A DNA stretch of 64,000 nt from Gemmatales bacterium (GTDB taxonomy: Bacteria > Planctomycetota > Planctomycetia > Gemmatales > HRBIN36). Under the pieces are notes generated by a model. The model did not search any database. It was given only the letters and a program-made list of their open reading frames with translations, and was not told where the DNA came from. Of this stretch, positions 651 through 57,535 are shown piece by piece; the stretch's first letter is position 1, and each line of letters starts with the position of its first letter. Position numbers and translations under genes: made by a program. The stretch is taken from assembly GCA_041640595.1 (NCBI GenBank), contig JBEPZY010000003.1, positions 380,342-444,341 on the forward strand, written 5' to 3'.

Positions 651-840
651 GCGGTCACAACACACGGGAGCTGGCAGTAGCATCGGGTGCCCGTTCTCGG
701 TGCCCGGGCACCGATAAGAGTTGCGGTAACAATGCACGGGGGGGCTAGCGGCAGCTGGTCGTAGCCTATCGCGCCGTAAAAGGCGGGGGACGCAAATGGG
801 ACGTAACAGTACACGGGGGCTGGCGGTAGCTGGTCGTAGT
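651..840. repeat. Degenerate three-copy direct repeat, period 72-77 bp
   Basis: cacgggagctggcagtagc (663), cacggggggggctagcggcagctggtcgtag (735), cacgggggctggcggtagctggtcgtag (812). Confidence 0.6.
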
Positions 841-965
841 AGGTGGTACGGGGGTGCGGATGGCGATTGATCAGGGGTTCGATGGGGGAGGGGAGTCATT
901 TTCGCGATCGGATACTCCAACAGGGGTGCGAATCGTGGATGGTCAGGGGTGCGGATGGCGATTGG

Positions 966-2411
966 TCACGAGCCCGGATGGCGCTGGGATTGCCACTGTT
1001 CGAGGAGTTTACCGATGTCGCGGTAGAAATAGTCGAGGTCGGCGAGCTCGGTGCCCAGTCGGATGGCGGTGTCGAAATCTCTGTCCTCGGCAGCCAGGGT
1101 GGCCAGTTCGAACAGCAATTCCTTGCGTGTTTCTTCTTCGCCGGCGGGAAGTTGTTTGAGGGCCTCCTGGAAATTGCGGACTGCCAGAGCCGGGTTGCGT
1201 TTCTTACGAAAACACCGTCCCAGTCCCAGCAAGGCTCGCCAGGCGGTTTTTGGGTCTTTGCGTGCCGACTGGAATTCCTGGATCGCTTCGTCGAGCAGTC
1301 CGAGCATCATGAGCCGCGTGGCCAACTGTAAGCGGGTCTCGTTGTCGTGAGGATAGCGGTCGAGCCGAGCGCGGAAATAATCGAGTTCGCGGCGGAGCAA
1401 TTCGGTAGCGAGCTTTTCGCGTAGCTGCCGGGCCAGTTCGTCCTGGGGATTCTGTTCGACTTTACGGTTGGCGACTCGCAGATTGTTGCGGAGCGTTTCG
1501 ATTTCGAGTTCGGCCAGGGCCTGTTGCAGGTCAAACTGGGGGCCGAGCTTTTGTATCCCTTCCTGCAACGTGCGGGCTGCCTCTTCCAGCTGACCGCGCC
1601 GGCGGTAGATGTCGGCCAGGCTCAGGAAATGCGAGACCTGCGGCGACTCGGACTGAATGTGAGCCCGCAGCAGTTCGATGCGGCGATGGTCGGGGTCGAG
1701 TGCACTGGCCGCCGATCGTTCCAGAGGCGTATCCTGCATGGCCTGGTTAGCGGCAGGAGTTTCGGCAGGCTGCTCCGGCGAACCGGTCGGACGTTCATAA
1801 CCACCGCGGGCAATGGTATCCATCGCCGCCAAGTCTTTTTGTTTGCGGTTGGCTTCCTGATCGGTCGGACAAAGCCGGGCCACGACTGTCCAAACCTGGG
1901 CGGCCTTTTGGAAATCTCCCATTCGCTCCAGGAAGCGACCGTACTGGCGATGGGCTTCGGCATGTTTGGGCCCGGCCTCGCAGGCTTTGCGAAGCAACCA
2001 TTCGGCAAGCGGATTCAGCCCGAGCTTTTCTGCCGCCTGTGCCATGGCGATGTGGGCACCGATATCCCAGGGGTTGCGGAGCAGGATGCGTTCGCCCCAG
2101 TGAAGAACGTCGCGGTAACGCTGTTGCTGCAAAGCCAGCTGCATTTTGGCGCGGGCCCGCATGGTTCGCAGCCAGGCCAGCCACGCCCAGGGACGCTTTT
2201 CGCCCAGCCGCGCTATTTCCGTCCGCCGCAGCAGTTGCCGATACGGCAGGTTGCCTGGGTCGAGTCGGCAGCATTCCATCAGGAGCGAGATGGCATAGTC
2301 GAGGTTCCTGGCGCCGCTGTTAATCAGTTGCCGCGCCCGCTCATACTGCTGGCTGGCAATACGCCGCTCTTCCGGTCGAACCACGAGCGTCGGCGATTGT
2401 TCCTGAGTCAT
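966..2411 (-). CDS. Tetratricopeptide repeat protein
   Basis: 481-aa helical ORF with repeated TPR-like units (e.g. LDEAIQEFQSARKDP, ALLGLGRCF, AVRNFQEALKQLP). Confidence 0.85.
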   Translation of the reverse strand: MTQEQSPTLVVRPEERRIASQQYERARQLINSGARNLDYAISLLMECCRLDPGNLPYRQLLRRTEIARLGEKRPWAWLAWLRTMRARAKMQLALQQQRYRDVLHWGERILLRNPWDIGAHIAMAQAAEKLGLNPLAEWLLRKACEAGPKHAEAHRQYGRFLERMGDFQKAAQVWTVVARLCPTDQEANRKQKDLAAMDTIARGGYERPTGSPEQPAETPAANQAMQDTPLERSAASALDPDHRRIELLRAHIQSESPQVSHFLSLADIYRRRGQLEEAARTLQEGIQKLGPQFDLQQALAELEIETLRNNLRVANRKVEQNPQDELARQLREKLATELLRRELDYFRARLDRYPHDNETRLQLATRLMMLGLLDEAIQEFQSARKDPKTAWRALLGLGRCFRKKRNPALAVRNFQEALKQLPAGEEETRKELLFELATLAAEDRDFDTAIRLGTELADLDYFYRDIGKLLEQWQSQRHPGS

Positions 2412-2590
2412 GACTTTCTCCCGTAATTCCAGAAAACTGGCCCGGCTTTTATGCCGCGCTGGGCTTCAACGTGGGCGCTCGCCGATTTGCCAGGACACAT
2501 TCGATCGCGAGCGACAAAAGGACGCACCTGCTTACACTCCGGACTGGTAATCCCCGGCTGCCCGACCGACTTTTCGCCGTCGGGGCATCG

Positions 2591-3538
2591 TTATTCCGAA
2601 GCCGTGGCCGAAAGCACGCCCGCACGGGCTGCCGTTGTTATCATAATCGTTCGCAAGAGCGATCGGTAGCGGTGAGCGATTTGGTCAACGGCCGGCTGCA
2701 ACCGTTCTTTCGGGCCGATGGCAAACACGGTCGGTCCCCAGGACGACTGTCCCGCAGCAGGTACCCCCAGTTGCCGAAATTCCTCGACCAGCCGGGCAAC
2801 GAGTTCGCTATGGTACGGCCCCTGCTGCCAGCGTGCGAAACATTGCCCGGCCAGACGATTGTATTCGAATAAGCCTTCGGCAAAATCGTCGTAACGCTGT
2901 TCCAGCAGGGCCGGGAGGATGTGAAGCAACGCCAGTCGGCACAGACGCTCGCTCGCGGTGTTCGCTTCGCCAGCAAATTGGGCAAAAACTTCCGCTTCCT
3001 TGTCGCCATGCAGTCCGGTCGGCACCTCCGGCAGCACCAGCGCGATCTGCCATTCCATCGGAAATGCCAGACGCAGGAAAGGAGCAGGACGATCGGTCTC
3101 AGGAAGGCGGCCGAGGTCCACGATAAAACCACCGCCGGCAAACGCGGCTATGCCGATGCCCGACCGCTGCCCACGTCCTGTCCAGAGCTGCAATTGCTCC
3201 CGGCTCGGTGCCATTCCCGCACTTCGCGCCATCAACCACGCCAGCGCCAGGGCCAGTTGCGTTCCACTGCCCAGCCCGACGTGTTCCGGTATCGCCTGAA
3301 CAATGTGCAAATGAAGCGGGGGAGCCTGCGCTAACTCCGGCCGATGGCGCAACCGTTCCACCCACACCGCAGCGCGTTCCGTAGCCGCACCCGTAATTTT
3401 CCACGCCTCCGCCCGTTCCGCTTCGATCACCCAGCCCGGTTCCGCCAGCGCTAGCCCTAATCCGCCATAGCGTCTTCGCCAGCCCGTTCCGGGTACCAGC
3501 AGGCCAAAATGTAAGCGGCTGGGCGTCTGAATCCGCAA
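2591..3538 (-). CDS. mptG: Beta-ribofuranosylaminobenzene 5'-phosphate synthase (GHMP kinase family, H4MPT biosynthesis)
   Basis: N-terminal TPSRLHFGL, GHMP loop IPEHVGLGSGTQLALA, GRGQRSGIGIAAF..GGFIVD and GQSSWGPT are characteristic of beta-RFAP synthase. Confidence 0.85.
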   Translation of the reverse strand: MRIQTPSRLHFGLLVPGTGWRRRYGGLGLALAEPGWVIEAERAEAWKITGAATERAAVWVERLRHRPELAQAPPLHLHIVQAIPEHVGLGSGTQLALALAWLMARSAGMAPSREQLQLWTGRGQRSGIGIAAFAGGGFIVDLGRLPETDRPAPFLRLAFPMEWQIALVLPEVPTGLHGDKEAEVFAQFAGEANTASERLCRLALLHILPALLEQRYDDFAEGLFEYNRLAGQCFARWQQGPYHSELVARLVEEFRQLGVPAAGQSSWGPTVFAIGPKERLQPAVDQIAHRYRSLLRTIMITTAARAGVLSATASE

Positions 3539-3680
3539 GGTCAGTTTCTCCCGTCTGTTTTCTTGCCGGCTCCAGGCGAATGGCGGCTCCGCGTCGGCTA
3601 CCTGACACCGGTGATGTCAGCTCCGGAGACAGCAGCGTCCGTCCGGGTTGCTGGGCGTTTACTGAGAGCGGGCAGCCTTA

Positions 3681-3780
3681 CGGTCAGCGCTTACGACACC
3701 GCCAGATTGCGGCGTTATTTTCATGTTTGTTGGCTGGTTTTGGGGCGGAGTGCTTCGGTCAGCGCTTACGACACCGCCAG
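3681..3780. repeat. 25-bp perfect direct repeat (period 75) duplicating the ggt 3' end and stop codon
   Basis: cggtcagcgcttacgacaccgccag at 3681-3705 and 3756-3780. Confidence 0.9.
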
Positions 3781-5523
3781 GGCCGAGCCCCAGATGCGAG
3801 TGTCGGCGATTGCCCAGTACATCCGTTTGCTGGCATCGTAGAAGATCGAATGAGCGTCGCCCTGTCGCTGACCACGTACCAATCGGTGTCCACGTTTTTT
3901 CAGAGCTTCCAGCAGCGCTTCCGAAAAAGCTTCACCTGGTTCGTAACGCACCTCGTCCGGAAACCATTGATGATGCAGGCGTGGCAGACTGACCGATTCT
4001 GCGGGCGCTAAGGAAAATCCCAGGCGATTCAACAGCACCTGGGCCACGGTGTTGATGATGGTTCGCCCGCCCGGACTCCCGGTAACCAGCACGGCACGGT
4101 CATTTTGCACGGCAATGGTCGGCGTCATGGACGAAAGCATCCGCTTGCCGGGAGCAATTTGATTCGGCAAAGTGCCAATGTGCCCGTCCGTCGTCGTGAC
4201 ACCCGGGAACCAGTTGAAATCCACCATCTCGTTGTTCAGCAGGAAACCAGCACCCCGCACGACGATCCGCGAACCGTAGCTGTGTTCCAGAGTGTAGGTG
4301 TTGGCGACGGCCAGACCGTCTCCATCCACCACGGAGAAATGCGTCGTCTCGTTGCCTTCCGGAGCCAGCGGAATGTCCGGAGCAATTTCCCGACTGGGTG
4401 TAGCCCGATCGAGAGAAATAGTTTTGGCCAGCCGGGCGGCGTATTGCGGGTCGAGCAATTCCTCGGGAATACGGACAAAGTCCGGATCGCCGAGCCAGCG
4501 AGCCCGTTCCGCATACGCTCGCCGCATCGCTTCCACCAGCACATGCACCGTCCGTACATCCCAGCGTCCCCAATCGCGATACGGAAAGTGCTCGATTTGC
4601 CGCAGGATCAGCCCCAGACAAATGCCTCCAGAACTGGCCGGGGGAACGCTGTAAATCTCATGCCCGGCAAAGCGGAAATGCACCGGCTTTCGCAATCGTG
4701 GACGATAGCTCCGCAAATCTTCGTGGGTTATCAATCCGCCGCCTCGCTGCATCTCCGCAACGATCTTGTCCGCGATAGCACCCTGGTAAAACGCTTCCAC
4801 ACCGCCTTCGGCCAGTTCCCGCAAGCTCCACGCCAGGTCTGCTTGCCTTAACCGATCCCCGGCTTTCCAGTTTTGCCCGTCCGGTGGAGCGAAAACTCTC
4901 TGCAGTTCGCTGAATTGCTTGCTCCCAGCCAGCACCTGGTTCAACGAACGTGCCAGGGATGCATCCACAGCAAAGCCATCGCGGGCCAGTTCCACCGCCG
5001 GCTCTACCAGTTGCCGCCACTTCAACCGCCCATACCGTTCGTGAGCCAGCCACAGTCCCGCGACGGTTCCCGGCACGCCTACCGTCTTGTGCTGGTGCGG
5101 CGAATCGCCTTTGCGGAACATCTCCTTATGAGCCTTCCATGGCGCTGTCTCCCGATAGTCAATAACCCAGGCCGGCTCGACGGAGCCGTCGGTGTATTTG
5201 CCTCGTAAATGCGGCGGAATAAAGACGTTCATAAATCCACCACCGCCGATGTTCCCTGCGGCCGGGTGCGTTACCGCCAGGGCCATCGCTACTGCCACCG
5301 CAGCATCCACGGCGTTGCCCCCTTTGCGGAGGATTTCCACACCGACTCGCGTGGCTGGTTCCGATACGCTCACCACTACCCCGCGTGTGCCCGAGGCGGT
5401 GCGAGTTACTTCCTGGCCTGCCAGGTCGGTTGCGGTTGCCAGTGCCAGCACACTGACACTGGCGCCATACAGAAACTCCCGTCGCGTGCAGTCATCTCGC
5501 GGGCAGCCGTCCGGATTTTTCAT
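3766..5523 (-). CDS. ggt: Gamma-glutamyltransferase with probable Tat signal
   Basis: GGNAVDAAVA, GNIGGGGF, IDYRETAP, catalytic ETTHFSVVD, NNEMVDF, GKRMLSSMTP, GSPGG; N-terminal TRREFL twin-arginine motif. Confidence 0.95.
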   Translation of the reverse strand: MKNPDGCPRDDCTRREFLYGASVSVLALATATDLAGQEVTRTASGTRGVVVSVSEPATRVGVEILRKGGNAVDAAVAVAMALAVTHPAAGNIGGGGFMNVFIPPHLRGKYTDGSVEPAWVIDYRETAPWKAHKEMFRKGDSPHQHKTVGVPGTVAGLWLAHERYGRLKWRQLVEPAVELARDGFAVDASLARSLNQVLAGSKQFSELQRVFAPPDGQNWKAGDRLRQADLAWSLRELAEGGVEAFYQGAIADKIVAEMQRGGGLITHEDLRSYRPRLRKPVHFRFAGHEIYSVPPASSGGICLGLILRQIEHFPYRDWGRWDVRTVHVLVEAMRRAYAERARWLGDPDFVRIPEELLDPQYAARLAKTISLDRATPSREIAPDIPLAPEGNETTHFSVVDGDGLAVANTYTLEHSYGSRIVVRGAGFLLNNEMVDFNWFPGVTTTDGHIGTLPNQIAPGKRMLSSMTPTIAVQNDRAVLVTGSPGGRTIINTVAQVLLNRLGFSLAPAESVSLPRLHHQWFPDEVRYEPGEAFSEALLEALKKRGHRLVRGQRQGDAHSIFYDASKRMYWAIADTRIWGSALAVS

Positions 5524-5535: not shown

Positions 5536-5645
5536 GTTTCGTGCTGGCCCCGGAAATTCTTTCCGTTGTTATGTCTTTTGCCGGTATAAGCTGACTATAA
5601 ATTCCTGGGTTTCCTGCTGGCCCCGGAAGTTCTTTCCGTTGTTAT
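5536..5645. repeat. 37-bp direct repeat pair (2 mismatches) around a 36-bp unique insert
   Basis: gtttcgtgctggccccggaaattctttccgttgttat (5536-5572) and gtttcctgctggccccggaagttctttccgttgttat (5609-5645). Confidence 0.9.
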
Positions 5646-13296: not shown

Positions 13297-13727
13297 TTAG
13301 TTTTGCAAGTTCGGCATGGAAATATCCAGAACGGCGCCACTGGTATTCGATTCTACGGTGTTCCGCACACAGGTTTGGGAAGGTACCCGGTTTTTTCGCC
13401 CCGTTGGTGTGCGATTCGCCAGCCGCTTCTCCGGGCGTGCTACCACGAAGTTGCCGCGGATGCCAGCGGTATGCGTATCCGCTCGGCTGGCCGGAAGATT
13501 TTTCGCTTGCAGACTATTCTCTTCACGCATAAGCTGAACAATAATAGATAATGGAAAAGTCGGGTCCGATGAGGCGGATCGAAACGTAACAGGTCGAACG
13601 GGGTAACTTCGACTCAGGAGAAAACGGTAACAACTCGCGGGCTCGCGCTGGGCGTCGGGACAACCAAAAAGGCAGCCGTTGTACAGTGCGGGCCGGGCAA
13701 TTGCTGGCCGGAAGGGGAGGTCTGGCC

Positions 13728-15443
13728 ATGGCCAAAGGGCGTGGCGATTTTACCGATGTGTTGCTGCGGAAGAAAATCATCAGTGCGGATCAGCTCCGCG
13801 AAGCGTTACAGCTGCAGAAATCCACAGGCGCTAAACTGGCCGATGCTCTGGTCAAACTCGGCTACGTTACTCCCAGCGAAGTGATGCAGGCCATCGCCGA
13901 GCATCACGGTTTACAGGCCGTGGATTTGAACGAGGTGAGCATTCCTCCTGCGGTCATTGAGCTGGTGCCCGAATCGGTGGCGCGGGAAAACGTTGTTCTG
14001 CCGCTGGCGCAGGAAAACGGGACGCTCAAGGTGATCATGAGCGACCCCATGGACATTGACACCATTCAGAAGCTGCAATTCATCCTGAACAAAGACATTC
14101 TGCCGGTGCTGGCTCCGCGCGAACAGATCATCGAAGCGATCAACCGTTATTACGGGCAGAGCGAAACCGAGTCGGTGGACTCGATGTTGCAGGAATTCAC
14201 CGACACCGCCATTGACACCACGCAAACCGAAACTGCCGCTGCCGTTGCCGCCGCCATGATGGACAGCGACGCCCCGGTGGTCAAACTCGTCAACCTGATC
14301 ATTCAGGAGGCGGTGAGTCTTCGGGCCAGCGACATTCACATCGAACCGTTTGCTGACCATATCCGTGTGCGCTACCGCATAGATGGAATCCTGGTGCAGC
14401 GGGACAGTCCACCGAAACGATTGCTGCCGGCGATCATCTCGCGCATCAAGATCATGGCGAAGATGGATATCGCCGAAAAACGCCGACCGCAGGATGGCCG
14501 CATCAAAATGGTGCTCAACGGCAAGCATTACGATCTGCGCGTGAGCATTCTGCCGACCAATCACGGCCAGGCCTGCGTCATGCGCATCCTCGACCGGCAG
14601 AATGTGCAGATCAGCATCCGCGACCTGGGCTTCTGCGAAGAGGATTACCAGAAGTTTGTGCAGATCATCAAGCGACCCAACGGCATATTCCTGGTCACTG
14701 GGCCGACAGGCTCGGGTAAGACCACGACTTTGTACGCGGTGCTCAACGAACTCAACCGCCCGGACCGCAAGATCATCACCGCGGAAGACCCGGTCGAATA
14801 CTACCTGCCCGGTGTCAACCAGGTGGAGGTGAAGCATCAAATCGGTCTGGACTTCGCGCGGATCATCCGGGCGATGTTGCGGCAGGCGCCGAACATCCTG
14901 CTGATCGGCGAAATCCGCGACAAAGAGACGGCTGAGGCTGCCATTCAGGCCTCGCTCACCGGTCACCTGGTCTTCAGTACTCTGCACACCAACGATGCTC
15001 CCAGCGCGATCACACGGTTGGTGGATATCGGCCTGCAACCGTTTCTGATCGCTTCGAGCTTGATCGGCGTGATGGCACAGCGACTGGTGCGGCTGGTGTG
15101 TCCGAAATGCCGCGAGCCGGATCAACCGACAGCCGCCGAGATTAAAGCAGCCGGGCTGACACCGGAACGCTTGAAGACCGCCACCTTCTATCGCGGTCGC
15201 GGCTGCCAGCATTGCCACCATACCGGTTACCGTGGCCGAACCGGCATCTTCGAACTCATGAAAATGAACAGCACCCTGCGCGAGCTAACCTTTAAGCGGG
15301 AACCGACCCAGGTCATTCGCCGCTACGCTCGCATGTTCGGTATGCGCACGCTTCTGGAAGACGGCGTGGAGAAAGCCTGTCGCGGCATGACCACCCTGGA
15401 AGAAGTGCTCAGCATTTGCCATCACGAAAGCGCTTATGCGTGA
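13728..15443 (+). CDS. pilB: Type IV pilus/T2SS assembly ATPase (PilB/GspE family)
   Basis: ASDIHIEP, PQDGR, Walker A GPTGSGKTTT, EDPVE, GEIRD, STLHTN, CxxC..CxxC; ATG at 13728 after GGAGG. Confidence 0.95.
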   Translation: MAKGRGDFTDVLLRKKIISADQLREALQLQKSTGAKLADALVKLGYVTPSEVMQAIAEHHGLQAVDLNEVSIPPAVIELVPESVARENVVLPLAQENGTLKVIMSDPMDIDTIQKLQFILNKDILPVLAPREQIIEAINRYYGQSETESVDSMLQEFTDTAIDTTQTETAAAVAAAMMDSDAPVVKLVNLIIQEAVSLRASDIHIEPFADHIRVRYRIDGILVQRDSPPKRLLPAIISRIKIMAKMDIAEKRRPQDGRIKMVLNGKHYDLRVSILPTNHGQACVMRILDRQNVQISIRDLGFCEEDYQKFVQIIKRPNGIFLVTGPTGSGKTTTLYAVLNELNRPDRKIITAEDPVEYYLPGVNQVEVKHQIGLDFARIIRAMLRQAPNILLIGEIRDKETAEAAIQASLTGHLVFSTLHTNDAPSAITRLVDIGLQPFLIASSLIGVMAQRLVRLVCPKCREPDQPTAAEIKAAGLTPERLKTATFYRGRGCQHCHHTGYRGRTGIFELMKMNSTLRELTFKREPTQVIRRYARMFGMRTLLEDGVEKACRGMTTLEEVLSICHHESAYA

Positions 15444-15641
15444 TCCCGTCGGCCTCAGGCGGAGCGGTCGAGTGGCGGACACCAGGCAAACGATCGGGAC
15501 GGAATGCGTACCAGACCGGGTCGTGGTCACACTGGCATTCCTGAGGCAAAGAATTCCTGGCGGCGTCCCTTACACATAGCGGAGGGGCCGTTTCGTCAGC
15601 GGGTACCAGGCTTTATGTAACGTCATAATGGAGGGCCAGCG

Positions 15642-16802
15642 ATGCCGAGTGGTCAGGTCTTGATGGAAAAACTCCTGGAGACCGTTTACCAGTTGAATGC
15701 TGCGGACCTGCATATCCGCGTAGGACAACCACCTGTCATTCGCCATGAAGGCCGACTCAAACGCCTGGAAACGAAAGTTCTGGAGCCGGACGATACCCAG
15801 GCTTTGATGAAGGCGATCACGCCAGACCGTTGCCAGCAGGAATTGCAGGAGCGTGGCAGCGCCGACTTCGGTTTTGCCTACGGCGACAAATGCCGATTCC
15901 GCGTTTCCGTGTTCAAAGAGCGTGGTCGCATCGGCATCGTGTTGCGGCGAATTCCCAGCAAGTTCCTGACGTTTGAACAAATCCGCATGCCGGAGGCGAT
16001 TCGGCGTCTGATTGTGCGACCGCGCGGTTTGCTGCTGGTGACCGGCCCGACCGGTTCCGGCAAAACCACGACCCTGGCCAGCATGATCAACTGGCTCAAC
16101 GAGAATTACGACCGCCACATCATCACCATCGAAGACCCGATTGAGTATTACCATCAGCACAAACGTTCCATCATCACCCAGCGGGAAATCGGCGTGGATG
16201 TACCGAGTTTCGCGGAAGCGTTGCGGCGAGCGTTACGGCAGGACCCGGATGTGATCCTCGTCGGCGAAATGCGCGACCTGGAAACCATCCAGACCGCCAT
16301 CGAAGCTGCGGAAACCGGGCACGTCGTGTTCGGCACCCTGCACACCAGCGGCGCCGCCAGCACCATTAACCGTATCGTGGACGTCTTCCCCAAGGAACAG
16401 CAGGACCAGATTCGCACGCAATTATCCACGGCACTGATCGGTGTGCTTTCGCAAACCCTTTTGCCTCGCAAACCGAGCGGGCTGGTGGCCGCTTTCGAAA
16501 TGATGGTCGTTACTCCCGCGATCCAGAACCTGATCCGCGAAAACAAAATCTACCGTATCGAGTCGGTTATTCAGACCGGTCGAAAAGAAGGTATGTTCTT
16601 GCTCGACGACAACCTCTTCCAGCTCTGGAAAGAAGGATTGGTGGACAAAGAGGAGGTCCTGCTGCGGGCCAACCGTCCGGCAGAACTCGCCCAGAGAATT
16701 GCCCTGGCCGAGAAGGGCATCGAACAGGAATACGAAGAGGAAGAGGAGGAAGAAGAATACGAGGAAGATGAATATGATGAAGAAGACGAGGACGAAGAGT
16801 AA
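15642..16802 (+). CDS. pilT: Twitching motility retraction ATPase with acidic C-terminal tail
   Basis: ADLHI, GPTGSGKTTT, TIEDPIE, ALRQDPDVILVGEMRD, AIQNLIRE motif. Confidence 0.95.
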   Translation: MPSGQVLMEKLLETVYQLNAADLHIRVGQPPVIRHEGRLKRLETKVLEPDDTQALMKAITPDRCQQELQERGSADFGFAYGDKCRFRVSVFKERGRIGIVLRRIPSKFLTFEQIRMPEAIRRLIVRPRGLLLVTGPTGSGKTTTLASMINWLNENYDRHIITIEDPIEYYHQHKRSIITQREIGVDVPSFAEALRRALRQDPDVILVGEMRDLETIQTAIEAAETGHVVFGTLHTSGAASTINRIVDVFPKEQQDQIRTQLSTALIGVLSQTLLPRKPSGLVAAFEMMVVTPAIQNLIRENKIYRIESVIQTGRKEGMFLLDDNLFQLWKEGLVDKEEVLLRANRPAELAQRIALAEKGIEQEYEEEEEEEEYEEDEYDEEDEDEE

Positions 16803-16875
16803 TGTCGTCCCCGTCCAGCGCAAATCCGTGCGGACTCCTGAGCAGTTGCCCTGAACGCCGACGCCGAGGAAAACT

Positions 16876-39982: not shown

Positions 39983-40024
39983 ATGTTAGGCCCACTCGTA
40001 TTCCTAGGCAACTTAATTCCATCT

Positions 40025-40501
40025 TCACTCATTTTCGTTGCCAAGGATCCGCTTCCTAGCTTCCTCGGCTGACATGGGGGGTACATACTCTGCGGCATGA
40101 AGTACAACTGCATCTTCCGCACCTGCAACTTTCGAGGTCTGTGAGGGAAATTCAAAGTCAGTAAGAGGGCCAGGAGCTTTGCCCTCCAGATAGTAATGGC
40201 ACAAATATGGGTCCACATGTTTTTCCAAATGATAGCGACTTAGGCCGAGAAGAACTCTTCGATCTCGTTTACTGATCTGAAGGAAAGAATCGCCATCTCG
40301 GACATAACGTATTTCAAGCTGCATTGAGGATCCGGCCGTTGGCATTACGACGGCATCAACGTATTCACCTAACAAAACATGCGCAATAGCCAACCAATCC
40401 AATAAATTTTTGTCTGTGATATAGATATCCAGAATCAGCCAACCATCCTGTTGCTGCTCAATATGATACTCTAGGGGCTTCGGAATCCATTTCTTTCTCA
40501 T
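40025..40501 (-). CDS. Putative cognate immunity protein
   Basis: Starts 2 bp after the toxin stop, AT-richer, 158 aa. Confidence 0.75.
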   Translation of the reverse strand: MRKKWIPKPLEYHIEQQQDGWLILDIYITDKNLLDWLAIAHVLLGEYVDAVVMPTAGSSMQLEIRYVRDGDSFLQISKRDRRVLLGLSRYHLEKHVDPYLCHYYLEGKAPGPLTDFEFPSQTSKVAGAEDAVVLHAAEYVPPMSAEEARKRILGNENE

Positions 40502-40503
40502 CG

Positions 40504-43500: not shown

Positions 43501-45549
43501 GCCGTTGTAGTTTACATCCTGCGTATAGTTTCCGGCACGGTCTTCATCCGTGATGTAACGGCTGTCCCAGCTATAGTTTGGATAGTCTTTGTGATAGATA
43601 CTGACGGAATAATAACGGTTTCGGAGTAATTGGCCTTCCTCGTGATGGGCGGAACTGTATGTGGCGGAGTCTAAATGGTCGCCGACCCAGGTTATATTTC
43701 CGGAAATGGAACCTCTATAGTTGCTTTGGGTTTGATAGTCCGTCAGCCATGCAGAAACCTCGCGGATGTTCGCTCCGTTGCTGTCGGTCTGGGAAGAGCT
43801 GGAACGTCCGGTGGCGTAATAGCGGTAAGCGTATTTTCCCTGGTAGTTGGAATCGTTAGTGATCTGAAATTTCTGGAGTGTTTCGGGGGTGGGCGGAGTA
43901 TAGCGAACAGTGTAAACAGTATTTTGCGAGTCGGAACGATAAAAACTTTCCAGATAAGAGGTGCCGGTGGCCACGTCGCGGAAGAAATCATCCGGTAGGT
44001 TCTCGACGGGGGGAAGTTGCGGCGATGGAACATTAGCAGACTGGTCGCTGATGGTGTATTGACCGGTAAAGTTGCCGTTCGCGGTAATTGTGTAAATCAA
44101 GGTGTTGGGATTTTCTTCGGCACCATTTTCAGAAGGTGTTTCGCTACCAGCTGGCTGAGGTTGCCAGACTGCATTCCAGGATTGATTGAGGCCAAAACTG
44201 AAGAAGTAGGTGCGGCCGTTAGTGGCGGCGAAACTTCCCGAGCCGGTATAGGTAACCTGGTCTTGCAGTGTCTGTTTTGACCAGTTGTAGTTATTCAAAT
44301 TCGTTGTCGCGGTATCAAACCAAGAATCACTTGCGGAACCAAGAGGCATAATGGTATATGAGGAATTAGTAGGGGAAACCTGGTAAGTGTATTCGTAACC
44401 GACGTGGTCATAGTGGAAAACATATTCGTCCTGAACGCGGAGCCAGGCCGTATAAGTTACGGTACCGGTTTCTGATACGGAAGTGGCACCGTCGCTGTTG
44501 GAAACGGAGATGGAACTGGAAATGGCCGTTTCAAAATAAGCAGTGGCGTTATCAGCGGTGAGCTGCACTGTATAGCTTCGTTGGTAGCTGCCGGAGAATT
44601 GGGCCAGTTGATAAGCTACCGTCGCAGGTTGGTTGGCGTTGGTGACCGGAGCATTGGCAAAGGTCGGGTCGTTATCGAGTGCTTGCAACCAGGCCGTAAA
44701 CACGTCGGGGGAATTCTGGAGTTGCTGGAACTGCTGAGCAACATCGTCCGGCATGTTAGGAGGCTGACTGATGTCCGGGAACGAACCGTCGAATTCCGGG
44801 TCACTCAGCAACTGCGGATCTATCCAGGAATCGGAGAGGTTGCTGTCCGTATCTAGTTGAAACCATGAGTCGTCCGAAATGTGCGAGCCACAATTGGAAT
44901 TGTCGGAAGATAGGCCGCCTCCGTCGGTAGGACTGTTTTGCGTGGTGCTTGTGGAATCTTGCGTGACAACGGAAGAGTTGTCAGTACTGCTGTTCGAAGG
45001 ACCAAGTTGGTCGTTGCTGGTACTGGAGCTGCTGGTTTGCGTCGTGGCAGAATCTGGGTTCGAATTGCTGCCGGGAAGCAAGGTGCCATCTGAGGTGGAA
45101 GAATCCGGTGGACTACTGGGATTGTTCGCAGCGTCCGGTGCGTCGAGAATGGTCCAGGTAAATGTAACGGAGTGGGATTCCGTGCCGTCGGAGGCGGTGA
45201 GGGTGATAGTGAAGTCCACACTGGGCTGGTCGGGGTGGGCGATGGAGTAATCCGGACTGCCGGTGATAACGCCACTAAGAGCGTCCAGGGTAAGGCCCGG
45301 CGGCAAGCCGCTAGCGGTGAATGCGATACTGCCGGCAGTTTCGGGTGGAGGTTGCGTGTACTGGAGATACTCATTCAGGTGGAGCGAGACAACTTCGCCT
45401 TCTTGCGTGAATAGCGGCCCCGGATTTTGCAACGTGAAATAACTGGCTGGAGCGGTACGGTCTTCGAGTTGTTCAAAACGCAGCAAGATAGGCTTGGCAT
45501 ACGAAACTGGTCGAGCCGGCCAGAGGAACCGGCGTAACTTCAATCCCAA
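40504..45549 (-). CDS. Polymorphic toxin: LEDR N-terminal motif, putative Ig domain, S/T/Y/N-rich stalk, hydrophobic pre-toxin helices, HINT, C-terminal toxin
   Basis: FEQLEDRTAPA; SGLPPGLTLDALSGVITGSP; CFAAGT...TTAEHPF...GELRPGD...VYNL..HTYFV..WAHN; 95-aa tip with SADGRWQYR..HVHLE..NWH. Confidence 0.9.
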   Translation of the reverse strand: MGLKLRRFLWPARPVSYAKPILLRFEQLEDRTAPASYFTLQNPGPLFTQEGEVVSLHLNEYLQYTQPPPETAGSIAFTASGLPPGLTLDALSGVITGSPDYSIAHPDQPSVDFTITLTASDGTESHSVTFTWTILDAPDAANNPSSPPDSSTSDGTLLPGSNSNPDSATTQTSSSSTSNDQLGPSNSSTDNSSVVTQDSTSTTQNSPTDGGGLSSDNSNCGSHISDDSWFQLDTDSNLSDSWIDPQLLSDPEFDGSFPDISQPPNMPDDVAQQFQQLQNSPDVFTAWLQALDNDPTFANAPVTNANQPATVAYQLAQFSGSYQRSYTVQLTADNATAYFETAISSSISVSNSDGATSVSETGTVTYTAWLRVQDEYVFHYDHVGYEYTYQVSPTNSSYTIMPLGSASDSWFDTATTNLNNYNWSKQTLQDQVTYTGSGSFAATNGRTYFFSFGLNQSWNAVWQPQPAGSETPSENGAEENPNTLIYTITANGNFTGQYTISDQSANVPSPQLPPVENLPDDFFRDVATGTSYLESFYRSDSQNTVYTVRYTPPTPETLQKFQITNDSNYQGKYAYRYYATGRSSSSQTDSNGANIREVSAWLTDYQTQSNYRGSISGNITWVGDHLDSATYSSAHHEEGQLLRNRYYSVSIYHKDYPNYSWDSRYITDEDRAGNYTQDVNYNGSWDSTGQPLELTVTSSGNSQLNTQGSTVYVGIWSRWNTSQDFAPGRTTTSWLRTTDSHSQSKNQYHFSSAPLTQTYHLRQKTEVSGTDTELQYLLETHQVWDNSANYSYFSRTYNSAAWEDHTQQDGQLDASGKLIGGTYKQDRSRNPSWDNKYWWEITRTNQPKEYTFTSDVGNGTQWSKESRDYQGPDQYTGSKIEHSWSSQKVTNYTWLIGSYTQDSITYTVNNRYRSTEDTESTTRGEFTLSNGDRSGTFNSYTEVNANNAYRKLQTSSDPVNNASGSYFERGSGNNQYQDTIHGVIYSGNSGQYSRTVFSSDDSSSGYLLQAQGQYTDSQGGTVSWSYRESTAPETQTSIDQPNYTKAKVTTTFTSSDGSSWTEASRSFETDTNQQVYAKGAVREHSEYWAPDGSTHSASTSITEVRYFEKDSRTTRGNPDNFTFEHNHQRNKSRKETLDTIHETFEPLLPTSNHHQSYFFTKENLTDNRKGTTQQGNTYFSSIFMEEIQETWHNYDWNYSDPERIQESHYRGFNSHRINRQGDSNSSTGEETIESSVRWWGKDIYLPNSVSSYGDPNRLTTTKEVYSLRWEGENLVERVRTYPTWRDQVAQGFYYFLTGNYGQAFQTFAGLAEQAIDYFAEVTAYYGQRALEFGAGLLSGLTAGLSDRVIGYFSPETLEQLQQSSWYQAGAITGTVVAIAAAFVNPCSLAAFGSALLRFAGSAYRVWQGVEAIGNAINAIDAYKQGDYLGAALHGAGAIFGVAQALRACFAAGTKLLTPHGPKAIETFQVGDEILTRLEWEPDAPVLVSQVEARFENVARIWHLHLASGQVIRTTAEHPFYVDGRGWVPAGELRPGDLLVSHDGQRVAVAELYDTGQYERVYNLAIRSFHTYFVCDESWPFSIWAHNACDIDVAKVRDFKGKRTKELHAYFTTEGEARALARQKLGSDIIKVAPGKWRSADGRWQYRAKPNDVARKHVHLELLDPKTGEVLENWHLHFLVGR

Positions 45550-45583
45550 TTGGCGAGCCCAATGGGCAAGACATAGTCTCTGC

Positions 45584-45623
45584 GAGAGAGAGACTTCTCT
45601 TCAACATGACTGCTCCCTCCTCG
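45584..45623 (-). promoter_or_regulatory. Strong RBS and ATG (45607) followed by a (TC)5 tract, out of frame with the toxin ORF
   Basis: Minus strand GAGGAGGGAGCAGTC-ATG TTG AAG AGA AGT CTC TCT CTC GCA; 58 nt upstream of the ORF's TTG. Confidence 0.6.
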
Positions 45624-45697
45624 AATGTTCAGGACCCGGATTTTGCCTAGTAGCGATCGCAGCAAAGAGTCGGTGGGAAGGTCAAGGGGTAATTTGG

Positions 45698-47215
45698 CTG
45701 CCTCATCCCCACTTTTGGGCTTCGGAGAAAAGCGCTCCCAGAAGGGCATTAAGTGCTTCGGCGGCCCGCACCTGCATTCGCTCAATCATCTGTCGCCCAA
45801 TGAAAAACAGACTACACGCTCCCTGGCGATTACTGCTGCACCACATCCCAGGCAAATAGCGCCGCATGGCCACCAAAGCCACTGCCAGCAAAATCCAGTA
45901 CGCCAACGCCAGAATCAGCAGCAGGCGATCGAACCAATCGCGGCACATCCGTGCCGACTTACGTTAAGAAACACCAATGCAAGAATCAGTAGCAAGCGCT
46001 CCAACCAGTTGGCACGAGTGATGATATAGGTCGCCATGAGTGATCAACGTGTCGCACTAGCCCCAGCCTAATCGTCGGTTCTTAGCATGCTGTTCATATT
46101 AGCCTGGAGGCCCTGGGGGATACGTCGCGTACAGCCAGGCCTTACCGCCGGTGCTTAGTATTGCCGCAACAACTCTTCGGATTTACGAAGCTTATAACTT
46201 CACAAAGCACATCAAGTCAACCTAATCGTCGGTCCTTGGCATGCTGTCCATATTAGCCTCGAGGACCCAGGAGGATTCATCGCGTACAGCCAGGCCGTAA
46301 CACCGGTGCTTAGTATTCCGCAACAACTTTTCGATGCTCCTCCGCCGTGCGTAAATCATGCCCGTGTATGCACTGGGTGCGCCAGCTCGGTCATCGGATA
46401 CCTGCACGCATTCCGATGCTGCGGCAAGGTTTCATATCTGTAAGCCGCCAGATGGTACGCCACCGAATGCGATTAGCGGAACTGCATTTTTTGAACAAGC
46501 GAAGGCTAGCCCAGTTCGTGGGGTCGCCGTTTAAGATTCCTAGGATGAATCTTTCGCTGCGACCGATGGCGAGGGACTCAGGTTAGCGGCCTGCGCATTG
46601 CACTAGCGGTCCAGATGCATCCGTGATAAGCCACCGCTAGTTGCCATCGGTCAACCATGACTGGTCCTGATTAGGAACCACTGATCATGCAACGGCAAAC
46701 GGTGGCGAATCCTGGAGCGCGTTGGAAACCATGCTTAGTGGCCTTATGAGTGCAGGTGACCAGATGTCGTCCCAGTTCGGTCAAGCTTTTGCGTCGCACT
46801 GGCAGAGCTGTTGTGACCCAAGCCACTAGCATTTTCCTCTGCCTGATGCTTTCAGCCAGCTAGGTTGCCAGGCCAGCGACGCTGCCGAGACCAAATCGGC
46901 CAGCGTTTCTCTCCGCTTTTTGTCAGACGCATAACTGGTGAACCGATCGAACCACAGTAGAATTGAAACGAGTGTGGCTGACTTGCCTCAGCACTCGCCG
47001 CTTGGTCGAGGATGACAAGCTTAACCCGCTGGCTCGCCCTTGTTCTCCGTCGTGATTAGACTGGTGGCCCACGGCAAAACTTCCAGGGATTGGATGGCGG
47101 TTCCCTCCGTAGGTTCTGGTGGCAGTGGGCGACCTTTTCTAAACATGTACGAACATAGGACTTCGGGGCCACCGCCATTTTTTCCGCACTCCCCATAAAA
47201 CTGGGGATGGATCAG
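45698..47215 (-). mobile_element. Decayed IS4-family element with imperfect terminal inverted repeats
   Basis: Transposase fragments ETLADLVSAA..SLTELGRHL, YARRRSIEKLLRNTK..YG and DRLLLILALAY..WCSSN..CSLFFIGR..KWG; IRs ctgcctcatccccactttt and aaaactggggatggatcag (15/19). Confidence 0.75.
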
Positions 47216-47576
47216 TCTCGGAATAGGTTGTCTCCTGGAATCTAATATTATTCGCCTGAGCGCAAGCAGTTCCGGAGGTAACTCGCGTTGCGGTAACGAA
47301 GCGGCTAAAACACAGGCGAATTCGACGCAGGATCGGCGTCATGTTGGTTGGTCGGCTTGGTGAGCCGTCTAAGCAGAAGCGAATGCAAAGAAGCCCCCGG
47401 GCGGTGGCAATGTTTCGGGCTAACATGACCTGTCCTGCGTTTAAGCAGGAGGAAATGCCAAGAAACATCGGCACTCAAACTAGAGCCTTCAGGTAATCGC
47501 GGACCGTCGGCTTGCAGGAAGCGCCGACACTATTCTGCCAATCAAACGGCCGGCCAGGCATTCCAACCGAAGGAAC

Positions 47577-47650
47577 TACCCCCGGCAGGATTCGAACCTG
47601 CGACCTGCGGTTTAGGAAACCGCCGCTCTATCCGACTGAGCTACGGGGGC
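47577..47650 (-). tRNA. tRNA-Arg (anticodon CCT), no encoded CCA
   Basis: GCCCCCG-TAGCTCAGTCGGATAGAGC-G-GCGGT-TTCCTAA-ACCGC-AGGTC-GCAGG-TTCGAAT-CCTGC-CGGGGGT-A folds as a cloverleaf. Confidence 0.97.
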
Positions 47651-47724
47651 AATCTCGCCAAGTCGTTGCCGTTTAGCGTGGCGGTTGACTGTTGTTCATC
47701 GAGTTTGATTTCGTCCGTGGGAAA

Positions 47725-47955
47725 TCTGGCCGGGTCGTTGCAGCTTAGTGTGGCGGTGTCAAGATAATGGTTCCGCCAACTAGGCCGGTAGTCTGGCCAG
47801 GTCGTTGCAGCTTAGCCGTGGTACTTCTGTGTATCCAGCCCGATAGTGTTCGGGCAGGGGCGTGCAAGCTGCTCCTGCCTAGGCCGAGGTGGCAGTAATA
47901 GCGTTGATACTATCAACTTGCCCGGGTGCGCAAGCTACTCCTGGCCAAGCCAAGG
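47725..47955. repeat. Two local direct-repeat pairs, periods 67 and 66
   Basis: tctggcc(g/a)ggtcgttgcagcttag at 47725/47792; gtgcaagctgctcctgcctaggccgagg (47862) vs gcgcaagctactcctggccaagccaagg (47928). Confidence 0.75.
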
Positions 47956-48428
47956 GCGATTGCGCGCGTAGCCGCGGTATGTGGCCCGAATTTCGCGGAA
48001 GATCGGCACGTCCATGAGCAGTACTAAGAAAATCGGTTACTCGGCGTGTTGCTCATCCTGACCACGGGGGCTTGCGAGCCCGCTCTTTCCATCTGCGAGT
48101 GGTTATCCACCCGACCGCGGTGCTGATTCTGCTACGGTTACTGCGGAGTAATGCCTGGCAGCATCACGCCGGGCTTACACCCACGGCTCCTGATCAAGGC
48201 GGTTTACTGGCTAGCAGACCAGGTCAATGAATCCTATCAATGTTTTTCGGCGGTTGCCAGGTTAATTTCGATTTACGAGCTGCGCAGGACCGCCGCCGTC
48301 AAATTGCAACACGCCAAGTTATTATGGACTTGGATTTACGAGGCCGATGCCAGGAGCATAGAGACGGCAAGATAACGCGAGAAGCTTCATATAAATAATG
48401 CCGCTACGTCTAACCGGGAGCACAAGCG

Positions 48429-51206: not shown

Positions 51207-51467
51207 ATGAAGCGCGTGGTGATTCTGGCCACAGCGGTGATGGTGATGAATGGCTGTGCGAGTTGCCCCTCGCATCCGTGGCTGAGCCGATTGTTTCGCC
51301 GCGATTGTCCGCCCGTGTTAGAAGCACCGCCTGCGACTTCCCTGACGGTGCCTGCTCCTGTGGTGACCGAAGCTCCCCCGCTACCGCCACCGCGAGTTTC
51401 GGAAATGATGCCGAGTCCCCGGCTGGCTCCCGAATATCCGGCTCCGCCCAATTCCCACCAGCCTTAG
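51207..51467 (+). CDS. Small Pro-rich putative lipoprotein
   Basis: AGGAG RBS; MKRVVILATAVMVMNG|C lipobox-like. Confidence 0.65.
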   Translation: MKRVVILATAVMVMNGCASCPSHPWLSRLFRRDCPPVLEAPPATSLTVPAPVVTEAPPLPPPRVSEMMPSPRLAPEYPAPPNSHQP

Positions 51468-51559
51468 TACCGTTTCGTGGACCGGACTGCACCTGTCTGC
51501 TCCGTGCTGGTGTGGCATCCTAGATCGCTTTAGTACCGTCCCGCGGGCTGACTTGCACC
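51461..51559. repeat. Degenerate 33-bp direct repeat, period 66, duplicating the lipoprotein stop codon
   Basis: gccttagtaccgtttcgtggaccggactgcacc (51461) vs gctttagtaccgtcccgcgggctgacttgcacc (51527). Confidence 0.6.
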
Positions 51560-55321: not shown

Positions 55322-56026
55322 GCCGGTTCGCCTCCTTGCCCGCAGGGGGACGCCGCAACTTTCCCCCGGCTGGTTTTCCACCAGCCGCATCCGCGCTTTG
55401 ATCCGGGTCAGATTGCCGACTGGCATAGGTATCGGTTGCCCGGCAAGGCGAACTTCACCGCAACTCTCGGTGGCAGCGCTTGTTAAGACAAGAAGCTGGA
55501 CGAAAGTGGCGAGAATGAAATCACTGGGGCTGGTTGCAGCCGACTAAGCCAACTATTGCCTCTGGCGAGATGCGGTAAAAGAGACAATCTGCCATGGCCT
55601 TACTGCCGTCCGGACGGAATCGTTTGTGCGGGCTGCTCTTTGGGTCCCGCAGCATCTCCGTCTGGCTGGAACATGCCTCTACCAGGTGGACACGGAGCCT
55701 CGGGGCACCAGAGGGTCTCCATTTCCGTCGCGCTGGAAGATCGCCCTTGTGTGTCAGCCGATAAGCCTGACTGTAGCCAAGCAACCAACCCGCTATTTCC
55801 GTCGCGCTAAAAGATTGCCCTTCCGTGGCGTGCTTTGGTGCCTGCAAAACAATGAAAGGTTGACGCGGATGCGACAGCTTCCCCGGCGTGTCTTGCCGCC
55901 CAGGAAGTGAACCGACCAGCGGCAACGCATTTACCAAATCCCGGCTGACTGACACCGACCGCTCTTGAATGGACATGCGAAAGCCGCGCGAAATACACGT
56001 TTCCATGTGCAATCGCGTCGCACACG

Positions 56027-56701
56027 CCACGGGGGGCTTACGCCCCCCGCTCCTGGTGCTGTTGCAACGACCGTTCGCCGGAAAGAATGGCGATTTCTGC
56101 GGTGCACAAACGCATATTCCCAGGAGCGTCGCACGTCAGTCCGCCGTGGGTGTGATTATCGTGCTTGCAAGGGGAAACGATTTCGTCATCAGCGGGTACG
56201 GTCATGAACGAGAGCGTCGCACGTCAGCCCGCTGTGGGTGTGGCCGGGCGAGTGTTGTCGGTAATGTGCTGGAAACGCACCTGTAAGCGCGTTTGCGAAA
56301 CCACGGGGGGCTTACGCCCCCCGCTCCTGGTGCTGTTGCAACGACCGTTCGCCGGAAAGAATGGCGATTTCTGCGGTGCACAAACGCATATTCCCAGGAG
56401 CGTCGCACGTCAGCCCGCCGTGGGTGTGAGTGTCGCGCTTGCAGCGGGAAACGATTTCGGGATGACCGGCTATGGTCATGAGCAAGAGCGGCGGGCGTCA
56501 GCCCGCCGTGGGCTGCAAACCGCATCTCCAACAGCAATGCGATGAATTTCCGCGTTTCGAGTTCGCATGCGGAGGGTATTCCACGGGGGGCTTACGCCCC
56601 CCGCTCCTGGTGCTGTTGCAACGACCGTTCGCCGGAAAGAATGCCGATTTTTGCGGTGCACAAACGCATATTCGCAAGAGCGGCGGGCGTCAGCCCGCCG
56701 T
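56027..56701. repeat. REP/BIME-like cluster: three about 120-bp elements bounded by inverted REP hairpins plus solo REPs
   Basis: ccacggggggcttacgccccccgctcctgg...gtcag(c/t)ccgccg starting at 56027, 56301 and 56581. Confidence 0.9.
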
Positions 56702-56744
56702 TTTTTGTTAGCACGGTCGTAGAGCCGTTCGGTCAGCGGCAAGC

Positions 56745-56928
56745 AAGCCGTCGCCTGTTCGGCAGGATTGCCGCATCGCCGCTGGGCCAGCGAAACGAAA
56801 ACACACCCAACGCCGACTAAGCCGTCACCCATTCGGCAGGATTGCCGCATCGCCGCTGGGCCAGCGAAACGAAAACACACCCAACGCCGGCTAAGCGGTC
56901 GCCCATTCGGCAAGATTGACGCTTCGCC
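56745..56928. repeat. Three 36-bp repeats separated by two near-identical 38-bp spacers (period 74)
   Basis: Repeats at 56745, 56819, 56893 (aagc.gtc.cc..ttcggca.gattg.cgc.tcgcc); spacer gctgggccagcgaaacgaaaacacacccaacgccg(a/g)ct. Confidence 0.85.
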
Positions 56929-57168
56929 AGGTTTGCCAGCCTTTGTTTCTGTGATGTTGACTTCCTTGAGCGGTTGCCCATGCGACAAGACTGCCGTTTT
57001 GCCAGTGTCAGCGTGGTCTTTTGTCGGAAATAAGGCTGCGTGCAGCGCGAGTGAATCCAGACTGGACAAAGGCCCGCGGGAGCAGATCGGTTTCTTCGGC
57101 AGCTGAACGTCCTATTTCATGTCGCGGCGATCTCCAATATGCTTCTCACCAGAGCCGCTGGCCCAGGA

Positions 57169-57535
57169 TCAACGCTCATGGCAATCGCTGCGATGCAGGG
57201 ACATTGCCGTCGCTGAGCTGGTCCCCGCTTACAGCTCACGCTCGTCCCAATCGCTGCGATGCAGGGGAGACTTTTGCGCTCGCTTTTGTCCGTGGGGCAT
57301 GTGTCACGCCGACCGCAATCGCTGCGATGCACGAGCATTGCTTCCACCCGGCTTGTCGCTGATGACAGGTCGCAGTCATCGGAATCGCCGCAATGCAGGG
57401 GGCAATGATAATGGCCTGGCCGCTGATGAAAACAGGGGACTCCTGCGAATCAGAATCGCCACAATTCCGGCGCGATTGCGAGCCCGGCGGTTAGCGACAA
57501 CCTGAACCGCTCGCTCATCGGGATCGCTACCCAGA
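57169..57535. repeat. Degenerate 5-6 unit array, period about 67
   Basis: aatcgctgcgatgca core at 57183, 57249, 57317; degenerate copies at 57383, 57454, 57522. Confidence 0.75.

Follow-up and report, generated by a model that had tools for sequence, protein, structure and literature searches.

The window analyzed here is a 64,000-nucleotide stretch of a Gemmatales bacterium genome (GenBank assembly GCA_041640595.1; 4.45 Mb in 42 contigs, labelled C1, C2 and so on), spanning C3:380342-444341. It holds, among other genes, a gamma-glutamyltranspeptidase gene (3766-5523, minus strand), a tRNA-Arg(CCT) gene (47576-47651, minus strand), and a type III-D effector operon of the CRISPR (short palindromic repeats, clustered and regularly interspaced) systems. 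Scattered among these are short units, here called scars, in which a stretch of local sequence (R) stands on both sides of an insert (S), with a distance d between the R copies of about 66 bp or about 74 bp (the 66 and 74 classes; Table 1). The extent, geometry, and probable origin of these scars are the subject of this report. Some abut genes: the second repeat copy of the scar at 3681-3780 overlaps the 3' end of the gamma-glutamyltranspeptidase gene, the scar at 5536-5645 sits directly upstream of the start of that gene, and the first repeat at 47644-47819 overlaps the 5' end of the tRNA gene.

Repeat-insert-repeat units in the window and the genome

An earlier note, made from the letters of the window, had listed 21 repeat pairs. 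We re-scored each as the best ungapped 28-nt match near its positions and offset, for which the window null has a mean of 12.7 identities and a 99th percentile of 19. Nineteen of the 21 proved real, with 20-28 of 28 identities; the two weak ones are 663/735 (17/28) and 46807/46881 (19/28). In the three-copy unit to which the former belongs, 740-764 recurs at d = 75 with 92% identity. A direct-repeat search limited to 120 bp returned 33 short-range families in the window, most of the 20 shown being spaced 66-77 bp. Tandem Repeats Finder reported only the three most regular repeats, namely those of period 73 at 38258-38399, of period 74 at 56745-56928, and of 274 bp at 56027-56701, the last of which is unrelated to the scars.

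The same two spacings recur throughout the genome. Exact 12-mers recurring at a fixed offset give sharp peaks at 65-68 and 72-75, plus multiples, and the largest periodic loci are C8:2-21676, continuing at the end of C10 (period 66-67), and C1:359749-377935 (period 73-75). Scars were then counted as ungapped self-alignments with a score of at least 18, true CRISPR arrays having been removed. Self-pairs at offsets 65, 66, 67, and 68 number 26, 65, 47, and 20 (158 in total), and those at offsets 72 to 76 number 44, 52, 60, 54, and 14 (224 in total), against a mean of 2.7 and a maximum of 8 at control offsets. Neighbouring offsets would predict about 24 pairs for these nine, which in fact hold 382; when the whole genome was simulated with a first-order Markov model, no pair appeared at any offset from 30 to 130. 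The genome-wide histogram is therefore sharply bimodal rather than flat, with the two period classes that had been proposed for the window.

A third peak, at offsets 88-93 (202 pairs), was considered as part of the same phenomenon and rejected, its pairs belonging to a separate, dispersed family of GC-rich hairpins. This hairpin repeat is about 28 nt long, REP-like, and often paired 88-93 bp apart (e.g., C1:764202-764955); in the window it occurs at 56027-56701, where the 274-bp unit is present 2.4 times.

Table 1. Scars, empty sites, and associated features in the window (R, duplicated block; S, insert; d, distance in bp between R copies; x/28, identities in the best 28-nt match)
Feature	Position	Strand	Details
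Three-copy unit, 74 class	664-847		spacing 72 + 75; 663/735 weak (17/28), 735/812 clear (24/28)
R-S-R scar	3681-3780		d 75; 25/25 core identical; 26/28
Clean R-S-R scar, 74 class	5536-5645		R 37 nt, S 36 nt, 95% identity, d 73; flanks unrelated
Likely insert source for C2:136237	26322-26357		inside 1299-aa open reading frame (ORF) 24162-28061; CGG follows
R-S-R scar	28095-28210		R 42 nt, d 74; opens a run of four abutting scars downstream of the type III-D operon
R-S-R scar	28213-28326		R ~39 nt, S 36 nt, d 75, 87%; begins 3 nt past the 28095-28210 scar
Diverged pair, weak 74-class member	28374-28498		d 77, 73% over 48 nt; 21/28
Three 66-nt units	28538-28699		73% over whole 66 nt
Type III-D effector operon	29485-37736	-	Cas10 with HD domain, Csx10, several Csx7-like RAMPs; context, not a scar
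R-S-R scar, 75-nt insertion	37580-37693		R 39 nt, S 36 nt; upstream end of Cas10 ORF
Three repeats, 66 class	38109-38268		d 65, two different 35-nt inserts; 22/28 and 21/28
Two 73-nt units	38267-38399		84% at period 73; similar over 60 nt
Empty site, window and C8 paralog	38459-38494		X6 (depth 34.2) and X9 (depth 12.2) contigs: 36 nt duplicated around 38-nt insert
R-S-R scar, 73-nt insertion	38867-38981		R 37 nt, S 36 nt; within four-copy repeated element
Empty site	40941-40978		same 38 nt triplicated at ~76-nt spacing in C10 paralog
Empty site	45773-45808		paralog C1:320842 has 36 nt twice, 75 nt apart
Pair, 74-class-like	45900-46007		d 71, 81% over 37 nt; 23/28
Borderline pair	46807-46908		d 74; 19/28 = null 99th percentile
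Three repeats	47644-47819		spacing 72 + 67
Pair, 66 class	47858-47953		d 66; 22/28
Old pair	51461-51559		d 66, 73% over 33 nt; 20/28
Pair absent from the earlier list	55721-55827		55721/55795, d 74, R 28-33 nt, 85%
2.5 units of 74 nt	56734-56928		period 74, 91%; 110 nt at 92%
Mini-array, five 29-nt repeats	57172-57471		four different inserts of 37, 39, 37, and 42 nt; 66-class geometry

Native arrays and the geometry of the scars

The genome carries two giant CRISPR arrays. In array A, on C8, a 30-nt repeat occurs 344 times and the 341 spacers have a modal length of 36 nt; in array B, on C1, a 37-nt repeat occurs 247 times and the 246 spacers have a modal length of 37 nt. Each array is adjoined by one cas1 and one cas2 gene, which makes two of either in the genome. 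On C8 the gene order is array A, cas2, I-B cas1 (E = 1.4e-127), cas4, cas3, cas5b, cas7, and a III-B cmr operon; on C1 it is cas2, a stand-alone group-II-intron-like reverse transcriptase (RT), cas1, and array B, which has no effector genes next to it. One repeat plus one spacer makes 30 + 36 = 66 nt in array A and 37 + 37 = 74 nt in array B, which are precisely the two period classes. The earlier note had supposed that the adaptation modules are encoded outside the window; this is true of cas1-cas2, with the qualification that the window has an effector operon of its own, the type III-D one, beside which there is no cas6, cas1, or array.

Two observations on these loci may be added. At the leader end of array B (C1:359749-360500) neighbouring spacers overlap as shifted copies of one source sequence, which looks like repeated sampling of a few short templates. 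The middle of the type III-D operon is occupied by a gene pair, one member coding for an MntA-like nucleotidyltransferase antitoxin (32648-33073) and the other being a small partner ORF (33070-33453).

In both classes of scattered pairs the target duplication has the native repeat length. The duplicated block R has a median of 30 nt in the 66 class (30 nt in the native repeat) and of 38 nt, with a mode of 36-38, in the 74 class (37 nt in the native repeat). Blocks of 27-33 nt stand to those of 34-41 nt as 86:14 in the 66 class and as 31:88 in the 74 class (class versus R length: Fisher p = 7e-20, Mann-Whitney p = 1e-16). Strict geometry leaves 243 clean pairs, 122 of the 66 class and 121 of the 74 class. 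Their insert lengths centre on 35-39 nt (66 class) and 36-38 nt (74 class), matching the native spacer modes of 36 (A) and 37 (B), with wider tails owing to eroded repeat edges. The repeat edges are sharp, and the sequence on both sides of them is unrelated. A subset of "young" pairs (identity of at least 0.94), tried as a way of sharpening the R lengths, was biased to short fragments of eroded repeats and was not used. Scar ends show a weak preference for G, which occupies repeat position 1 at 87 of 178 and 73 of 176 ends (both strands), followed by T at 34%; G also starts three of the four native repeat ends.

The repeats are local sequence, since the 243 clean R sequences form 190 unrelated similarity groups, 159 of them singletons. 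Resemblance to native repeat A is confined to one chromosomal locus, C3:328836, and contig C20; beyond these only chance-level matches of 7-10 nt were seen, and a general similarity between scar repeats and native repeats was rejected. The insert of the scar at 28095-28210 (28137-28168) has a 10-nt stretch identical to part of repeat A, which may be due to chance or to a slipped spacer carrying repeat sequence. Where a functional array would have several units sharing one conserved repeat, 240 of the 293 clusters are single pairs, with repeats unrelated to the native ones.

These facts bear on the possibility that the scars descend from numerous true CRISPR arrays of various types that were once acquired and have since decayed to two or three repeats. 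Such an origin would suit the loci at 57172-57471 (five repeats) and 38109-38268 (three repeats), which look like small arrays with different spacers, as well as the repeats related to repeat A at C3:328836 and on contig C20, and several scars do flank type III operons. As an account of the whole it is very improbable, because it would require about 190 unrelated repeat families in one 4.4-Mb genome, in only two geometries, both of them those of the resident arrays, and with most clusters (240/293) reduced to single pairs; moreover, the repeats include gene ends and a tRNA end, and the empty paralogs described below show the "repeat" to be pre-existing, single-copy local sequence.

Similarity extends over the whole unit in just 53 of the 382 pairs (12 of 158 in the 66 class and 41 of 224 in the 74 class), which are either units duplicated afterwards or tandem or coding repeats of no relation to the scars; the inserts are thus mostly not diverged unit copies. 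Three window loci are of this kind. At 28538-28699 inserts 1 and 2 are homologous, pointing to a later unit duplication of a 66-class scar; at 38267-38399 the 60-nt similarity indicates that the two units arose largely by unit duplication; and at 56734-56928 the "inserts" are identical, and therefore the locus is a whole-unit tandem duplication, which may have arisen secondarily from a scar or have nothing to do with the scars. All three fit an origin of the units as ordinary tandem duplications, through replication slippage or unequal crossing-over, in which the "insert" would be the faster-diverging half of the unit. Extended to the scars in general, this explanation is highly unlikely: slippage gives no preference for 66 or 74 bp, nor for a conserved part of 30 versus 37 nt, the pairs outside the 53 have sharp repeat edges with unrelated sequence on either side, some inserts have insert-only matches elsewhere, including a native spacer and a targeted contig (C15), and empty sites lack exactly R + S. 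Tandem duplication is thus refuted as the general cause and keeps a role only in the later amplification of a minority of loci.

Empty sites, insert origins, and distribution

For the clean pairs, the pre-integration site was rebuilt as flank, one R, and flank, and searched for genome-wide. A paralogous copy aligns straight across the rebuilt site for 27 of the 243, and five insertions were inspected by alignment. Empty sites, with one R copy and no insert, accordingly exist as paralogous copies within the genome. The clearest case is the filled site at 37580-37693, whose empty paralog (C8:38183-38420) has one R and 97.5% identity over both flanks and lacks exactly 75 bp of the window locus, that is, 39 duplicated plus 36 inserted. 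In the four-copy element, C1:329805 shares a 73-bp insertion with the window copy (38867-38981), and C2:80242 lacks it; the C1:321560 copy has other insertions, of 67 and 66 bp (C1:321599 and C1:321769), both of which the other three copies lack. The stretch immediately upstream of the type III-D operon (about 37460-38400) has a second copy on C8, upstream of the III-B operon, and the whole 38109-38268 locus is duplicated on C8 as well, matching the C8:38736 locus.

Part of the window stretch is contained in twenty public sequencing runs, mostly hot-spring and mat metagenomes, and the contigs of four of them were compared over window 28001-48000; as contigs alone were used, an absent joint is uninformative. 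An X2 contig carries the scars at 28095-28700 with no difference over 28001-28842, which argues against an assembly artefact. At the empty window site 40941-40978 an X2 contig repeats the 38 nt with 38 letters between; in this genome C10:63289-63635 has three copies and C10:60586-60863 is contiguous. At 45773-45808, X2 and X3 contigs repeat the 36 nt with 39 letters between. Joints of this sort were considered as allele polymorphism, a reading dropped for most of them, which are explained by paralogous copies in this genome. The exception is 38459-38494 (X6 and X9): no filled copy of it was found in this genome, so the filled form is probably a strain-specific event. The minus-strand ORF at 40504-45549, of 1681 amino acids, has a pretoxin-HINT domain near its C-terminus in a polymorphic-toxin-like architecture, and paralogous C-terminal fragments of it occur on C10, one with a three-copy scar.

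At 37580 the R copies differ from the empty paralog at 7 of 78 positions versus 2 of 200 in the flanks, and error-prone gap filling of the duplicated repeats was entertained on this account. It was dropped when 11 filled/empty comparisons gave 9.3% mismatch in R versus 9.9% in the flanks; the excess at 37580 may reflect gene conversion of the flanks. Because the two mismatch rates are equal, the divergence between R copies (mostly 82-98% identity) reflects age.

Thirty-two of the 243 inserts match elsewhere in the genome, 18 as whole-locus paralogs, 5 mixed, and 9 insert-only, with flank identity of 16-48% in these nine. A native array-A spacer, C8:12371, is matched over 30 of 31 nt, at offset 2, by the insert of C2:174386 (66 class). 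Contig C15 is matched by two 66-class inserts, one from C2:407699 and one from the orphan locus C3:328836; the latter is counted in the nine and the former is not, its best match being a paralog. The insert of the 66-class scar C2:136237 matches window 26322-26357 at 34 of 36 positions, insert only, with flanks at 20-28%. The C3:643266 insert is identical to C1:732923-732955, two inserts (C3:484583 and C3:554031) derive their matches from the 23S rRNA gene, that of C9:139927 matches the cas1 gene on C8, and others match chromosomal genes. The 23S rRNA gene itself (C5:166219-169683) is 3465 nt long versus a model of 2925 positions and may hold an intervening sequence.

Contig C15 (9585 bp) is matched by 31 array-A spacers and one array-B spacer; most of these lie towards the leader end and almost all share one orientation, a bias that suggests ongoing primed adaptation. 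Typing C15 as a phage found no support, none of its nine larger ORFs matching PHROGs. For array A, the protospacer-adjacent motif (PAM) follows the spacer and reads NGG in 28-29 of 33 rows, equivalent to CCN in the CRISPR RNA sense. Beyond C15, two of the 587 native spacers match outside arrays, one being a 20-nt partial match to C7 and the other that of C8:12371 to the C2:174386 scar insert. Given so few self-matching native spacers, self-derived pieces seem to be tolerated in scars but not in working arrays.

The inserts are thus unrelated to each other and share pools with canonical spacers, through one native spacer match and two C15 matches, and they match each other only within paralogous whole loci, unlike copies of a transposon or miniature inverted-repeat transposable element. 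This matters for the idea that a different integrase or tiny mobile element, independent of CRISPR, inserted pieces of about 36 bp with target-site duplications of 30 or 37 bp. The link to Cas1-Cas2 being correlative, and the uneven regional distribution being common to the scars and the unrelated hairpin family, such an agent has some appeal, but the inserts form no family (211/243 lack a genomic match, and 18 of the 32 that match are whole-locus paralogs), the two duplication lengths are the two native repeat lengths, and the insert sources are common with those of native spacers, so that we regard it as extremely unlikely.

Gene positions were approximated with a coding mask, a crude proxy built from ORFs and GC content by codon position rather than with a gene caller, that covers 78% of the genome. 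Relative to it, 192 of the 243 clean pairs lie fully outside, 28 overlap a gene end, and 23 lie inside, some of the last resembling 24- or 25-residue protein repeats. The earlier statement that no unit interrupts an intact gene therefore holds approximately: it stands for the 192 outside the mask but not strictly, given the 23 inside it. This depletion of scars from coding DNA points to purifying selection. Scar density per 100 kb is 17.4 on C2, 11.7 on C3, and 2.9 on C1, and falls to 0 on C6 (in 256 kb). The hairpin repeat shows the same regional bias, with densities per 100 kb from 0-3 (C1, C6, C7) to 25-38 (C2, C3, C4); a link between scars and hairpins at fine scale was rejected, 30% of scars lying less than 500 bp from a hairpin versus 25% of random non-coding positions.

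Among 31 genomes searched, this one included, 20 have cas1. Scars in the relatives were counted in sampled stretches of 133 kb and 256 kb rather than whole genomes: a 133-kb same-genus contig ending in a B-like array has none, against about 11 expected at the mean density of the present genome, and the 256 kb from a same-family genome yielded a single weak pair. The scars are not lineage-wide.

Probable off-target integration and known systems

The geometry, the empty sites, the insert origins, and the presence of the enzymes are observed, and all agree with the reading first offered for the window, that of neo-arrays written by promiscuous Cas1-Cas2, which we consider supported; the refuting conditions named with that reading each turned out in its favour. 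We put at roughly 90% the probability that the scattered units arose, and became fixed, when the two adaptation modules of this genome integrated spacers off target (non-canonically). Spacer integration by Cas1-Cas2 is established and provides the basis for the proposed chemistry; that these particular enzymes were the agents, and that they acted in this way, we infer from that knowledge. Each module would carry out two strand transfers, staggered by the length of its own native repeat: some 30 bp with the I-B Cas1-Cas2-Cas4 and some 37 bp with the RT-associated Cas1-Cas2. Where this happened in ordinary DNA, repair of the gaps would leave a copy of the local stretch on both sides of a new spacer of about 36-37 bp, and hence R-S-R units of about 66 or 74 bp. 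Most such events would persist only where they do no harm: outside coding sequence, at the ends of genes, or within dead mobile elements. Later, unequal recombination would have copied some scars, and a few would have taken further spacers, giving small arrays. The loci at 57172-57471, whose repeats decay rightwards, and 38109-38268 look like small arrays given serial spacers, and the former is a candidate nascent array. Such integration may act, as the earlier note also proposed, as a mutagenic or recording process.

Several points weigh against this attribution to off-target integration or limit its reach. The assignment to these Cas proteins rests on geometry and co-occurrence and is correlative. 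No orthologous empty site comes from a sister species, intergenic orthology not being alignable because same-genus genomes match in genes only, at 70-75% identity in the flanking genes; paralogous empty sites could in principle have arisen through loss of the insert by recombination between two R copies. The whole-unit tandem copies (53/382) and the in-gene 72/75-nt pairs, some of which are probably protein repeats, place the number of events below the number of pairs. Most inserts, 211 of 243, have no other match in the whole genome, and PAM evidence is thin: of the five 66-class inserts whose source could be identified, three or four fit the array-A PAM when boundary ambiguity is allowed for, and one does not. 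In a 42-contig assembly, the uneven scar density could also partly reflect how the genome was put together.

Off-target integration has been regarded as a rare laboratory side reaction with circumstantial natural traces only (10.1101/148544). Neo-CRISPR loci formed by non-canonical Cas1-Cas2 integration were reported by Nivala, Shipman and Church (2018, Nat Microbiol), as cited in 10.1101/148544, PMC7054753, and PMC6698737; according to these, integration was detected in Escherichia coli over-producing Cas1-Cas2, with circumstantial evidence in two other species. As in E. coli so described, non-CRISPR DNA of repeat length is duplicated here on the two sides of an insert of spacer length, this at numerous unrelated places in the chromosome, and sites used more than once become small arrays. 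Unlike those events, the present ones are fixed in a wild genome without engineered over-expression, number in the hundreds, and involve two modules (I-B and RT-associated), each with its own geometry, in one genome; the inserts include self sequence, such as 23S rRNA, and the scars are strongly filtered to non-coding DNA and uneven over contigs.

Two further systems allow comparison. In vitro on plasmids, Pyrococcus furiosus Cas1-Cas2 integrates at non-CRISPR sites that share some repeat sequence features (PMC6698737). Some site preference is likewise seen here, in the enrichment of G at the first repeat position, but it is weak, and most of the repeats are dissimilar to the native ones. In the I-B system of Haloarcula hispanica, the 30-bp repeat is precisely duplicated, with an accuracy that needs two mid-repeat motifs (PMC4872114). 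The I-B geometry here also duplicates about 30 bp, but at sites without a detectable shared motif, which suggests a ruler intrinsic to the protein. The C1 module resembles RT-associated CRISPR adaptation modules in having cas2, a stand-alone group-II-like RT, and cas1 beside a large array of 37-nt repeats. In the open-access literature searched, we found no report of off-target scars with RT-module geometry (the 74 class), nor of genome-scale natural off-target scars in a wild organism.

The case is thus very probably a new, very large natural instance of a known process, its novelty lying in the occurrence in one wild genome of two modules, one of them RT-linked, each with its own ruler length. 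Off-target integration would have been fixed here some 200-350 times, offering natural data from which the intrinsic ruler and the site preferences of a I-B and an RT-associated integrase can be read. Self and rRNA pieces among the inserts would reveal spacers captured without selection against self-targeting, and the cost and filtering of off-target events are visible because scars are depleted from genes. The scars also bear on how new arrays may arise. More tentatively, and at somewhat less than even odds, off-target integration may be a standing and quantitatively important source of new DNA and new CRISPR arrays in the lineage, the loci at 57172-57471 and 38109-38268 having been born de novo and re-used by the I-B integrase, and the RT-linked module doing likewise with RNA-derived spacers such as those from 23S rRNA. 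If so, the genome would be a natural record of the origin of CRISPR arrays and of capture when autoimmunity does not purge.

Elsewhere in the window, at 13686-20355, three consecutive genes for T2SSE-type secretion ATPases are followed by a T2SSF platform gene. The second of the ATPases has a long Glu-rich tail encoded by a GAA/GAG repeat at 16722-16799.

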